Source: Luteococcus sp. H91 (GTDB taxonomy: Bacteria > Actinomycetota > Actinomycetes > Propionibacteriales > Propionibacteriaceae). From it: DNA of 32,000 bases. Below the pieces are notes generated by a model, which saw nothing but the letters and a program-made list of their open reading frames with translations, was not told the origin of the DNA and searched no databases. A program made the position numbers and the translations under genes. The stretch spans positions 30,491 through 62,490 of the forward strand of contig NZ_JBCDMV010000011.1 in NCBI RefSeq assembly GCF_038433135.1. The letters run 5' to 3'. Below are positions 1,901-32,000 of the stretch, piece after piece. Numbering within the stretch: position 1 is the stretch's first letter; each line of letters begins with the position of its first letter.

Positions 1901-2008
1901 GGATTCCGAAAACCGACCGCCAGATATTGCCCCAGCAGGCCCCCGAGGCTGGCGGCGGCCGAGGTCGGCGGAATCTGGTGGTCACTTTCCGGAAGTGGTC
2001 ACCTGACC
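1901..2008 (+). repeat. Intergenic inverted-repeat element, copy A (short arm 1901-1928, long arm 1971-2008)
   Basis: GGATTCCGAAAACCGACCGCCAGATATT ... 42-nt spacer ... GAATCTGGTGGTCACTTTCCGGAAGTGGTCACCTGACC. The arms are reverse complements of each other and are homologous to copies at 8534, 25843 and 31737. Confidence 0.85.
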
Positions 2009-8533: not shown

Positions 8534-8641
8534 GGGTCGCCCGTCCAATTCCGAAAAGTGACCGCCAGATTCACCCCGATCCGGCCGCCCCCGCGGCGCC
8601 CACGCAGCAGGGACCGATCTGGCGGTCGTTTCTCGGAATCC
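8534..8641 (-). repeat. Intergenic inverted-repeat element, copy B, in opposite orientation (long arm 8534-8572, short arm 8616-8641)
   Basis: GGGTCGCCCGTCCAATTCCGAAAAGTGACCGCCAGATTC ... 43 nt ... GATCTGGCGGTCGTTTCTCGGAATCC. The extended GGGTCG..GnCCAA flank is on the left here, whereas it is on the right in copies A, C and D. Confidence 0.85.
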
Positions 8642-8695
8642 GCCCCGTGAGTGCTCGTCGGACTACCCTGTGAGCGCCCACCGAAGGGAGCCACG

Positions 8696-8914
8696 ATGAG
8701 CAATGCCCGACTTCAGTACGCGGCCTTGGTCAGCATCCTGCAAGTGCTTGCGCTGGTGGGGATGGTGTGGATCCTGGCCAATCTGACGGGCCGAAGTGTG
8801 CGTGCGGCCGCGCTGGCAATCTGGCCCGCAGTGGCCGCCGGTGCCGTCGGCATCGCGATCACCGCCACCCGCACCTACCGGTCCGGCCCTCCCGGGGATT
8901 CGCCCCGGGACTAG
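8696..8914 (+). CDS. Small two-TM membrane protein (72 aa), function unknown
   Basis: MSNARLQYAALVSILQVLALVGMVWILANLTGRSVRAAALAIWPAVAAGAVGIAITATRTYRSG... A GAAGGGAG Shine-Dalgarno sequence lies 5 nt upstream of ATG 8696. Confidence 0.5.
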   Translation: MSNARLQYAALVSILQVLALVGMVWILANLTGRSVRAAALAIWPAVAAGAVGIAITATRTYRSGPPGDSPRD

Positions 8915-8945
8915 AGTCGTCTCACCGGCGTCCAGGGAGGTACGC

Positions 8946-9605
8946 GTGACCGAGTTCTTCGAGACCTTCAACAATGGCGCGCGCCATCTGCGCGAGGAGA
9001 AGGAATTCCAGAAGGTCAATGTGCTGCAGGCCAAGCGGGGTGGCCGCGGGCCGCAGCCGCTGGACCTCGAATCCGGCCGGATCGTGCTGGTGCGCCCCGG
9101 GGAACGGGTCGCCACCCGCGGGATCGAGGTGCGACGGGCCACCGCGGAGGATCATCGGGCCGCGGCCCGGGTGGCGGTGCACGCCTATCTGGACGGCGGG
9201 GAGCTGCGGCATGACGACCCCTACCTGGAGGTCTTGCGCGACTGCACCACCCGGGATCGCGACGGCGAACTGTGGGTGGCGCTGGACGGTGCTCGGGTGG
9301 TCGGCACCCTGACGTGGTGCCCGGCCGGCTCCCCGCTGCAGGAGGTGGCCGGCCCCGGCGAGGGTGAGTTCCGGGTGCTCGGGGTGGACCCGACCGCCCA
9401 GGGCAGTGGCGTCGGACGGCTGCTGGTGCAGGCCGCGATCGACCGGGCCCGAGCCGACGGCCTGAGTGCGATCGTGTTGTCGTCGTCCGAGTGGATGACC
9501 ACCGCACACGCGCTCTACCGCTCGTTGGGTTTCGTCCGCACGCCCGAGCGCGACTGGTCGCCCCGCGAGGACGTGCACCTGCTCACCTACCGCCTGGAGC
9601 TGTGA
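8946..9605 (+). CDS. GNAT family N-acetyltransferase with an N-terminal extension of about 60 aa
   Basis: GTG 8946 is preceded by GGGAGG with a 5-nt spacer. The C-terminal part, ...FRVLGVDPTAQGSGVGRLLVQAAIDRARADGLSAIVLSSSEWMTTAHALYRSLGF, carries the acetyl-CoA binding Q/R-x-x-G-x-G motif. Confidence 0.75.
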   Translation: MTEFFETFNNGARHLREEKEFQKVNVLQAKRGGRGPQPLDLESGRIVLVRPGERVATRGIEVRRATAEDHRAAARVAVHAYLDGGELRHDDPYLEVLRDCTTRDRDGELWVALDGARVVGTLTWCPAGSPLQEVAGPGEGEFRVLGVDPTAQGSGVGRLLVQAAIDRARADGLSAIVLSSSEWMTTAHALYRSLGFVRTPERDWSPREDVHLLTYRLEL

Positions 9606-20289: not shown

Positions 20290-20363
20290 GCGGGTGTAGT
20301 TCAGTAGCAGAACACCCACCTTCCTGGTGGGAGAGCTTGGTGCAATTCCCGGCGCCCGCTCCA
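20290..20363 (+). tRNA. tRNA-Gly (anticodon UCC) with a non-canonical D loop, T loop, T stem and anticodon loop
   Basis: Hand-folded cloverleaf: acceptor GCGGGTG/CGCCCGC, discriminator T, encoded CCA; D arm GTTC-AGTAGCA-GAAC; anticodon arm CCCAC-CTTCCTG-GTGGG; variable loop AGAG; T arm CTTGG-TGCAATT-CCCGG. Confidence 0.75.
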
Positions 20364-25798: not shown

Positions 25799-25842
25799 GG
25801 GCTCCATCATCCCACGCAGAGCAGTTGATTCCTCAATTACCC

Positions 25843-25952
25843 GGATCTCCGAAAAGCGACCTCCGGAACCCGGTCGGTCGACCGCTTCCCGCGTGGGCTT
25901 GCTCGGCGGAGGCGAATCTGGTGGTCAATTCCCGGAATTGGTCGCCCGACCC
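25843..25952 (+). repeat. Intergenic inverted-repeat element, copy C (short arm 25843-25868, long arm 25914-25952)
   Basis: GGATCTCCGAAAAGCGACCTCCGGAA ... 45 nt ... GAATCTGGTGGTCAATTCCCGGAATTGGTCGCCCGACCC. Confidence 0.8.
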
Positions 25953-25958
25953 TACCCT
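25953..25958 (+). promoter_or_regulatory. Candidate -10 hexamer (TACCCT) for a leaderless DUF456 transcript
   Basis: In TACCCTtgagtcATG there are 6 nt between the hexamer and ATG 25965, and there is no Shine-Dalgarno sequence. Confidence 0.3.
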
Positions 25959-25964
25959 TGAGTC

Positions 25965-26456
25965 ATGACCCCCGCCCTGATTGCCGTCATCGTTGCCATG
26001 CTCGCCCTGGTCGGGCTGTGCGGCATCATCGTCCCGGCCCTGCCCGGAAGCCTCACCGTCGGGCTGGGCGCCCTGGTCTGGGCCATCTGGGGCAACTCGT
26101 CCTGGGGTTGGGTCGCCTTCGGCGTCGCCGCAGTGCTGCTGGCCATCGGGATGGGCTCATCAATGCTGCTGACCAAGCGTGATCTGGACCGGCGCGAGAT
26201 TCCGCAGTGGCCGATCTTCGTCGGGCTGGCCAGCGGCCTGGTGGGCGCCTTCGTGCTGCCGGCGCTGGGCCTGCCGATCGGCTTCGTGCTGGGCCTGTTC
26301 TGCGCCGAGCTCTTCCGGGTGCGCAATGCCTCCACCGCGCTGACCACCAGCGTCGCCGCCATCAAGACGATCGGCACCGGCATGCTGATCGAGCTGGCCT
26401 GCGCGATGACCGCCACCGCCGTGATCGGCGCCAGCGTGATCAGCGGCCTGGTCTGA
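25965..26456 (+). CDS. DUF456-family membrane protein
   Basis: MTPALIAVIVAMLALVGLCGIIVPALPGSLTVGLGALVWAIW... is a four-TM small protein whose N-terminus is typical of DUF456. Confidence 0.7.
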   Translation: MTPALIAVIVAMLALVGLCGIIVPALPGSLTVGLGALVWAIWGNSSWGWVAFGVAAVLLAIGMGSSMLLTKRDLDRREIPQWPIFVGLASGLVGAFVLPALGLPIGFVLGLFCAELFRVRNASTALTTSVAAIKTIGTGMLIELACAMTATAVIGASVISGLV

Positions 26457-29259: not shown

Positions 29260-31598
<2,339 letters not shown>

Positions 31599-31736: not shown

Positions 31737-31853
31737 TTTCCGAGAATCGACCCCCAGAATCTCCCAGAACACGAGGATGGCACCGGCCAACACGGGAGAG
31801 CCATCGACGAGCAGGAATCTGGCGGTCGATTCTCGGAATTGGTCTCCCGAACC
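31737..31853 (+). repeat. Intergenic inverted-repeat element, copy D (short arm 31737-31761, long arm 31815-31853)
   Basis: TTTCCGAGAATCGACCCCCAGAATC ... 53 nt ... GAATCTGGCGGTCGATTCTCGGAATTGGTCTCCCGAACC. Confidence 0.85.
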
Positions 31854-31878: not shown

Positions 31879-31884
31879 TAGGTT
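31879..31884 (+). promoter_or_regulatory. Candidate -10 hexamer (TAGGTT) for a leaderless transcript
   Basis: In GCTAGGTTcgcaggcATG there are 7 nt to ATG 31892 and no Shine-Dalgarno sequence. The same GCTAGGTTC string occurs upstream of the MshA-MshB fusion. Confidence 0.3.
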
Positions 31885-31891
31885 CGCAGGC

Positions 31892-32000
31892 ATGAGCACT
31901 CACAGAACCGCCCCCGAACTCCCGCAGGGAATCACCTTCGTCAAGGATCACGGCCAGGACGCCTACCGGATCGAAACCGAGCTGTGCACCGGCCTGGTGC
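31892..32000 (+). CDS. Start of an unidentified protein (first 36 codons only)
   Basis: MSTHRTAPELPQGITFVKDHGQDAYRIETELCTGLV... shows GC3-rich codon usage and runs off the right edge. There is not enough sequence for a family call. Confidence 0.4.
   Translation, partial: MSTHRTAPELPQGITFVKDHGQDAYRIETELCTGLV

Follow-up and report, generated by a model that had tools for sequence, protein, structure and literature searches.

The first lines of this DNA hold an inverted repeat, at positions 1901-2008, that shares its layout with three other intergenic sites of the window (the whole stretch of 32,000 nucleotides that was analyzed), and the question it raises is what these sites are: a family of repeats, binding sites for a host protein, RNA hairpins, or a coincidence of GC-rich sequence. 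Our results favor, with a little more confidence than doubt, a family of non-coding DNA palindromes, restricted to Luteococcus and similar in kind to REPINs and MITEs, and the evidence for and against this reading is given below.

Four intergenic inverted-repeat elements of ~110 bp are present in the window, at 1901-2008, 8534-8641 (better delimited as 8534-8644), 25843-25952 and 31737-31853. Each element starts with a short-end arm of approximately ATTCCGAGAANNGACCGCCAGAT, continues through a GC-rich spacer into the reverse-complement arm AATCTGGYGGTCNNTTYYCGGAA, and ends in an extension of 13-14 nt with the approximate form TTGGTCNCCCGACC, which is found at one end only. The two inverted arms are ~24 nt each and the poorly conserved spacer measures 44-55 nt in the window copies; the spacers had initially been described as GC-rich, variable in sequence and similar in length, which is correct except for the range given, 42-53 nt. 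Likewise, the extension had been placed at the far end of every copy, which is true for copies 1, 3 and 4; copy 2 reads on the minus strand and carries its extension, GGGTCGCCCGTCCA, on the left (8534-8547). The parts of the four copies are:

1903-1926, plus strand: copy 1, short-end arm (ATTCCGAAAACCGACCGCCAGATA)
1927-1971, plus strand: copy 1, GC-rich variable spacer
1972-2008, plus strand: copy 1, long-end arm AATCTGGTGGTCACTTTCCGGAAG with extension TGGTCACCTGACC
8534-8571, minus strand: copy 2, long-end arm with extension (minus-strand sequence AATCTGGCGGTCACTTTTCGGAATTGGACGGGCGACCC)
8572-8615, minus strand: copy 2, spacer, the half on the long-end side being identical to the H101 orthologue at 23 of 28 positions
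8616-8644, minus strand: copy 2, short-end arm (plus strand GATCTGGCGGTCGTTTCTCGGAATCCGCC)
25845-25869, plus strand: copy 3, short-end arm, the most decayed (GATCTCCGAAAAGCGACCTCCGGAA)
25870-25914, plus strand: copy 3, spacer
25915-25952, plus strand: copy 3, long-end arm with extension (AATCTGGTGGTCAATTCCCGGAATTGGTCGCCCGACCC)
31737-31760, plus strand: copy 4, short-end arm (TTTCCGAGAATCGACCCCCAGAAT)
31761-31815, plus strand: copy 4, spacer, the longest (55 nt)
31816-31853, plus strand: copy 4, long-end arm with extension (AATCTGGCGGTCGATTCTCGGAATTGGTCTCCCGAACC), a perfect match to the consensus arm

The short ends of copies 1 and 2 have GGAATCCGCC in common, and the distance from the start of one end to the start of the other is 70, 69, 70 and 80 nt in copies 1 to 4 and 68 nt in the copy at locus L005 of Luteococcus sp. 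H101.

When the window was searched with the arm pattern AATCTGGCGGTCNNTTCTCGGAAT, allowing up to three mismatches, six arms were matched, as compared to 0.00 expected from 100 shuffles. A covariance model built from 11 elements was run on the window with filters off, a check of the kind that the initial annotation had proposed, and it recovered the same four sites at 86-102 bits; the next best match in the window reached 11.5 bits, which leaves four copies without a weak fifth. Sequence, pattern search and covariance model thus agree with the initial annotation that the four sites share one architecture of arm, spacer, reverse-complement arm and extension, and the recurring SENRPPD and SEKRPPD peptides that it pointed out are real footprints of the elements, in mechanical ORFs that overlap the arms. 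The window is a palindrome-rich background of 68% GC, and nothing further speaks for the idea that GC-rich intergenic palindromes came to look alike by chance, with no family behind them. The shuffles, the gap of ~75 bits to the next-best covariance-model match and the related copies in other Luteococcus genomes (see below) refute it, and we give it practically no weight.

The relation between the two arms of a copy was analyzed in an alignment of 11 sequences with 23 inter-arm pairs. Watson-Crick pairs between the arms were found at 14-21 of the 23 positions, which falls short of the stem of ~25 bp that had been attributed to each copy. Copies 1, 2 and 4 fold as one long hairpin, and the minimum-energy fold of copy 3, where the short-end arm is decayed, has no long hairpin. 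Across the alignment 84.2% of the cells were paired vs. 80.1 ± 1.1 in column shuffles (0 of 500 as high), changes on both sides of a pair were seen in 19 cells (1 of 500 shuffles as high), and out-of-register pairing controls gave 26-57%. RNAalifold independently recovered 17 inter-arm pairs, six of them with compensatory changes. These results show that the two arms of a copy stay complementary via compensatory changes. The mismatches between the arms showed no strand bias (11 G.T vs. 17 A.C), which places the constraint on DNA, or equally on both strands; this points to a DNA-level palindrome and not to a strand-specific RNA, and strand-specific RNA structure was rejected as the main constraint on the same counts. 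Between the window copies and their H101 orthologues the identity of the long arm was 0.74-0.87, as compared to 0.48-0.61 for the spacer, the latter being about the background for unrelated GC-rich sequence, and hence the arms are constrained and the spacers are not. Spacer length ranges from 33 to 55 nt when copies of other species are included.

Pairing within the long arm, GGTCNNTTN with NAANTGGTC, was also considered. It occurred in 84.8% of cells, many of them as G.T, shuffles were as high in 111 of 500, and most short ends do not have the second half of this intra-arm palindrome. A REP-like hairpin inside the long arm is thus possible as pairing and is not supported beyond shuffles, and the same was found for a terminator/antiterminator-like alternative pairing of the extension. 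A role as an intrinsic terminator was not supported either, as the main hairpins have no T-run after them and were not called by the scan, and terminator-like calls were not above shuffles.

The four copies had been described as strictly intergenic, and this is correct for all of them once the gene starts are set against H101; by this comparison the UvrA-like gene next to copy 4 starts at 31598 and not at 31793. The genes on either side are:

Copy 1, divergent: PQQ-like lipoprotein gene (minus strand) on the left, ABC ATPase gene (plus strand) on the right
Copy 2, tandem: usp (plus strand) on the left, a small ORF and a GNAT gene (plus strand) on the right
Copy 3, divergent: PIG-L gene (minus strand, start 25798) on the left, DUF456 gene (plus strand, start 25965) on the right
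Copy 4, divergent: UvrA-like gene (minus strand, start 31598) on the left, aldose epimerase orthologue (plus strand, ATG at 31892) on the right

Over eight orthology groups from several species the context was divergent in three, tandem in two and convergent in three, which shows that the copies are extragenic without preference for divergent, tandem or convergent regions. Copy 2 and its orthologues come immediately behind the stop codon of usp. A short way downstream of copies 3 and 4 are TANNNT boxes, TACCCT (25953-25958) and TAGGTT (31879-31884), which precede the ATG codons of the DUF456 and aldose-epimerase genes by 6-7 nt and are kept in H101; the long end of copy 3 directly abuts its -10-like box, 6 nt before the DUF456 ATG at 25965. 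This layout is known from leaderless promoters of actinobacteria and suggests that both genes have leaderless transcripts, in which case copies 3 and 4 would not need to be transcribed. The neighboring genes are functionally unrelated and the distances and orientations of the copies vary, so that the constrained position beside related genes that marks the operators of a regulon was not found.

Other features of the flanking genes are recorded here for their own sake. A palindrome, GTTGA-N4-6-TCAA(C/T), at 25824-25837 lies just upstream of the PIG-L deacetylase gene and is kept in all five Luteococcus genomes compared (L021, L022, L023, L024 and the window), including OSA5, where the repeat element is missing; we take it for a probable operator or promoter element of PIG-L that has no connection with the repeats. 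The ABC ATPase gene beside copy 1 (2034-2840) is split over two reading frames, with Walker A in the frame of 2034-2390 and the signature SGGEQQRIKFA in the frame of 2449-2781, and is either a frameshifted pseudogene or the product of a sequencing indel. The orthologous cassette of L. peritonei is intact (ABC ATPase, ABC2 permease, HisKA_3 kinase and response regulator), and H101 has no ABC-transporter cassette at the position adjacent to copy 1. Downstream of copy 2 a hydrophobic 72-aa ORF and a long mechanical ORF that contains GNAT are found (window 8696-8914 and 8796-9605); the N-terminal part of the latter has a weak match to DUF6191, and relatives annotate a separate small DUF6191 gene. 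A tRNA gene at 20290-20360 (plus strand) is the sole Rfam match in the window. An IS110-family transposase in OSA5 (L022:2675-3892), between the MarR and aldose-epimerase genes, is the one transposase that the sampled loci contain, and it has no relation to the repeats.

The main new result concerns orthologous copies. The syntenic loci compared were those of Luteococcus sp. H101, L. peritonei, OSA5, Sow4_B9, two Logan assemblies and a species known from a MAG. In H101 each of the four corresponding intergenic sites is occupied, with orientation unchanged and arms diverged, and all four H101 copies in the sampled 39.5 kb are orthologous to window copies. The copy-3 site is also occupied in L. 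peritonei and in the Logan assembly SRR28911246, with arms CCCCGGAAATCGACC.../...GGTCGNTTTCCGGGG. At the copy-2 site the MAG species (L041) has a hairpin with arms CCGCCAAAATCGCCA/TGGCGATCTTGGCGG, where each arm has lost one base (GACC to GCC and GGTC to GGC). Further copies were found in L. peritonei (L023:13024-13126 and L043:13837-13939) and in the MAG species (L041:1041-1115), and three copies in other species lie between convergent genes. The occupied sites in the sister species H101 show that the four copies are old and have been passed on vertically, as passengers or as conserved DNA sites, keeping their places from species to species; nothing points to recent jumping. Homology of the orthologous spacers was rejected as a proof of descent, as the global identity (0.46-0.68) is barely above the non-orthologous background and the spacers are near saturation overall. 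Local blocks within the spacers do support descent, namely the 23 of 28 positions common to window copy 2 and H101, and the block AAATCG(A)CCACGAGA that L041 shares with the H101 orthologue (H2) at the copy-2 site.

No element was found at sites 3 and 4 in OSA5 or at sites 1 and 2 in Sow4_B9. These were rejected as clean empty sites, since in both genomes the intergenic DNA is too diverged to define insertion borders. Two contigs from closer outgroups (L044 and L045), considered as a means to polarize the differences between window and H101, break off within usp and do not reach the element site. At the copy-2 site after usp, Sow4_B9 has a canonical GC-rich stem followed by TTTT, i.e. a terminator (L038:12035-12080), which shows that this locus tolerates, or needs, a hairpin of some kind.

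The copies show no evidence of transposition or mobility. There is no transposase next to any of them, as the initial annotation had also found, and gene tables that cover ~290 kb of Luteococcus loci list no RAYT (PF01797) gene. The same annotation had suggested a search for target-site duplications and empty sites. This revealed no matching direct repeats in the flanks of 11 of 11 aligned copies, where the outer ends are decayed and imprecise, and no occupied/empty polymorphism between the two closest genomes, H101 being occupied at all four sites.

A comparison of the arms gave a different grouping from that of the loci. Mean arm identity was 0.82 among the four window copies and 0.76 among the four H101 orthologues, as compared to 0.745 between orthologues and 0.73 for non-orthologous window/H101 pairs. 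The window copies have CCGA on the short arm in four of four cases, and TCGG or CCGG on the long arm. In the H101 orthologues the long arm reads CCAG and the short arm CTGG (in one copy CTGA), and peritonei-type copies of site 3 read CCGG/CCGG. A variant of its own, CCGCCAA.A.CGCC, occurs twice in the MAG species, once in the orthologue of copy 2. The resemblance between arms is thus higher inside one genome than across orthologous sites, a pattern suggestive of concerted evolution. The window was chosen because its copies resemble each other, which inflates the similarity within it, but this bias does not explain the state shared by the H101 copies or that shared by the copies of the MAG species. 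Decay of methylated cytosines in CCGG was considered as the driver of the changes from CCGG to CTGG/CCAG and CCGA/TCGG, and was rejected: observed over expected CCGG is 0.94-1.13 in all seven sampled genomes, and with CCGG near expectation everywhere a lineage-specific methylation cannot drive parallel transitions. The causes that remain are gene conversion among the copies or co-evolution with a trans-acting protein that binds the arms. It is conceivable, although we hold it to be improbable, that the arms are recognition sites of a co-evolving, genome-encoded protein that binds DNA hairpins or duplexes sequence-specifically, and that this putative partner is an actinobacterial counterpart of REPIN-RAYT or an as yet undescribed architectural system. 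If true, such a protein would explain why the arms of the four orthologous loci, eight in number, switched together (window genome CCGA/TCGG, H101 CTGG/CCAG, third species CCGCCAA) while the two arms within each copy stayed complementary.

For the wider distribution, genomes and metagenomes were scanned with the exact pattern ATCTGGYGGTCNNTTYYCGGAA, which represents the window-type arm and matches six of the eight window arms. It gave 20 matches in 185,579 species genomes (one genome per species), one of them being the sole exact window-type arm in the whole H101 assembly, and 12 in JGI metagenomes. A script then looked for a complementary arm within 130 nt of each match. Such a partner was present only in the window and in H101 (locus L005), and at the other 31 genome and metagenome matches the best partner paired at 11-14 of 22 positions, which is chance. 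Judged by this window-type pattern, the family appears to be restricted to the genus Luteococcus in the collections searched. Among window proteins, the PIG-L deacetylase and the MFS transporter are 89% and 96% identical to those of unclassified Luteococcus strains, and other Luteococcus species are below these strains in identity to both. In the one syntenic region sampled, the density is four copies per 32 kb in the window, four per 39.5 kb in H101 and three per 38 kb in L. peritonei; the hundreds of copies per genome that the initial annotation had derived from one copy per 8 kb are an extrapolation.

The initial annotation did not recognize the sequence as any known family, and our searches point the same way. 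Rfam at gathering thresholds gave no match to the repeats, only tRNAs, and permissive Rfam scans gave only sub-threshold matches to generic hairpins (miRNA precursors). BLAST against plasmid and phage collections gave no match to the repeats, and in the full-text literature there was no description of such repeats in Luteococcus or Propionibacteriaceae. As a sequence family, these intergenic inverted-repeat elements are thus new and previously undescribed.

The architecture had been likened to REP/BIME, Correia, BOX or MITE-type elements. The plan of a REP doublet (REPIN) or MITE-type element is indeed there, but the duplications and empty sites of MITEs are not. REPINs are REP doublets that form hairpins and occur with RAYT transposases in Pseudomonas, E. 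coli and others (Bertels & Rainey 2011, PMC3116915); in the published description two conserved ends stand inverted around a spacer that is less conserved, their starts lie 71 bp apart and compensatory changes occur frequently (PMC3116915), and their populations are placed randomly in extragenic DNA, turn over very slowly and are vertically inherited (PMC3116915; bioRxiv 10.1101/2021.07.10.451892). The Luteococcus repeats follow this plan, with conserved inverted ends, one long hairpin, a spacer that is less conserved and counts by its length and foldability more than by its sequence, and ~70 bp between the starts of the ends (68-70 nt, 80 nt in copy 4). They are also alike in their frequent compensatory changes, extragenic placement without preference for gene orientation, long vertical persistence with very slow turnover, and genome-specific 'master' sequence. 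As marks of a REPIN/REP-RAYT system we used a REP palindrome in each end, a cognate single-copy RAYT (Y1/IS200-like) gene, usually with the repeats on either side, and tens to hundreds of copies. By contrast, the Luteococcus repeats have no RAYT or other transposase near any copy, their intra-arm REP palindrome is not above shuffles, there is no GTAG-type 5' motif, an extension of 13-14 nt on one end makes most copies asymmetric, and the host is an actinobacterium; in the RAYT literature searched, REPIN-RAYT systems are not reported from Actinobacteria. Since the intra-arm palindrome is unsupported, no RAYT was found in the ~290 kb of sampled Luteococcus DNA and the copy counts stem from one syntenic region, we do not file the repeats as REPINs.

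Bacterial MITEs include Correia/NEMIS of Neisseria and RUP and BOX of Streptococcus; their copies usually share the whole interior and show target-site duplications and presence/absence polymorphism between close relatives. The Luteococcus repeats resemble them as short non-coding, intergenic elements of ~100-150 bp with terminal inverted repeats that can form a long hairpin, and may, like MITEs, sit beside promoters and contribute to them. However, the Luteococcus spacers are essentially unalignable between copies, no duplication was seen, and all four sites are occupied in the sister species, so that target-site duplication, conserved interior and empty sites in close relatives, the classical marks of a MITE, are all missing. 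Nor was a parent autonomous IS with the same ends seen in the plasmid and phage collections, and no transposase lies beside the copies. ERIC/IRU of enterobacteria, which are 127-bp imperfect palindromes, are similar in length, intergenic and in some copies conserved in position between species, but they are conserved over their whole length, lie in transcribed regions, belong to another phylum and have no sequence similarity to the Luteococcus repeats. Integron attC sites, which are recognized as folded single-stranded DNA, also combine conserved inverted ends with a variable center, but the Luteococcus repeats have no R''/L''-L'/R' consensus (GTTRRRY), integrase or cassette array, and the genes between them are syntenic core genes.

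Some of the properties described above would also fit a function for the host. The arms could be conserved double-stranded DNA sites for a host protein that binds two inverted sites ~70 bp apart, with a nucleoid-associated/architectural protein or a global regulator as the candidate and the arms tracking its lineage-specific specificity; the elements would then be retained for the sake of this binding. The conservation of position over several species agrees with this, as do arms that are better conserved than the spacers and most of the flanking intergenic DNA, the genome-specific arm variants at orthologous loci (which resemble co-evolution with a trans factor), the location of three of the four window copies between divergent genes and beside promoters, and an imperfect palindrome, ATTC-N3-GAAT, in part of the long arm. 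Conserved position together with arms conserved above spacer therefore has to be counted against a REPIN/MITE reading. On the other hand, a dimer or tetramer on duplex DNA predicts neither the locus-specific compensatory changes between arms nor the matched single-base deletions in the MAG species. Spacer length is not fixed (33-55 nt), nor is the interval between an element and the start codon or -10 box (0 to ~65 nt), and the neighboring genes are functionally unrelated and divergent, tandem or convergent in the proportions given above. We hold such host sites to be unlikely, though worth keeping in mind. The narrower form of this idea that the initial annotation had named as its own refutation, conserved operator sites of one regulator, is right about the conservation of the sites between species and conflicts with the unrelated neighbors, the variable distances and the covariation of the arms.

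Alternatively, the elements could work as RNA hairpins in mRNAs, as 3'-end stabilizers, U-tract-independent terminators or long duplex targets of RNase III that adjust how stable the flanking transcripts are; the first two roles have been suggested for REPs. The predicted hairpins are stable, with z-scores of -1.9 to -7.5 for most copies, and both the location of copy 2 and its orthologues directly behind usp, where Sow4_B9 has an ordinary terminator of GC stem and T-run, and the three copies between convergent genes in other species speak for this reading. Against this, divergent genes flank three of the four window copies, which precede leaderless-type -10 boxes and need not be transcribed; neither strand has an excess of G.U over A.C; the main hairpins are not followed by a T-run, and terminator-like calls are no more frequent than in shuffles; and there is no match to an Rfam family. 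This makes RNA hairpins doubtful, and slightly more so than the binding sites.

The reading we prefer, a family of palindromic DNA repeats of the REPIN/MITE kind, would work as follows. Each element consists of two inverted arms of ~24-38 nt and a freely evolving spacer of ~45 nt, together able to form a hairpin or cruciform of ~110-140 nt. The family may have arisen by amplification of a hairpin-forming, non-autonomous element, driven by a trans-acting enzyme whose substrate would be the arms, such as a single-copy RAYT/IS200-like protein or another protein that binds the ends, and the elements would now move extremely slowly or not at all. Their arm sequence could be kept genome-specific by co-evolution with an arm-binding protein or by gene conversion among the copies. 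Effects on neighboring genes, such as copy 3 supplying the region upstream of a -10 box or copy 2 serving as a 3' hairpin behind usp, would then be by-products and not the reason for the existence of the family.

L. peritonei also has another repeat family, in which arrays of ~20-nt units (CGCTCCGACCCCGCTC..., complement GGGGTCGGGGCGTCGTGAAGG) in inverted blocks fill intergenic gaps of 0.6-0.8 kb (L043:12040-12660 and L023:6780-7010). The L023 array occupies the position of the UvrA-like gene of the window, where such arrays are absent.

In practical terms, the elements create spurious ORFs (the SENRPPD-type peptides), and they can break assemblies and mislead the annotation of promoters and terminators in Luteococcus genomes. 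The family alone opens no long-standing question, and for its cellular function there are candidate readings only. If our reading is right, Luteococcus harbors a population of hairpin repeats of its own that is passed on vertically, and does so in a phylum from which REPIN-like systems have not been described. The orthologous copies with genome-specific arm variants are a compact natural experiment on short dispersed repeats: the paired orthologue set can tell apart gene conversion, structural selection and co-evolution with a binding protein as forces that maintain such repeats, and it is these arm variants at orthologous sites that most deserve to be followed up.
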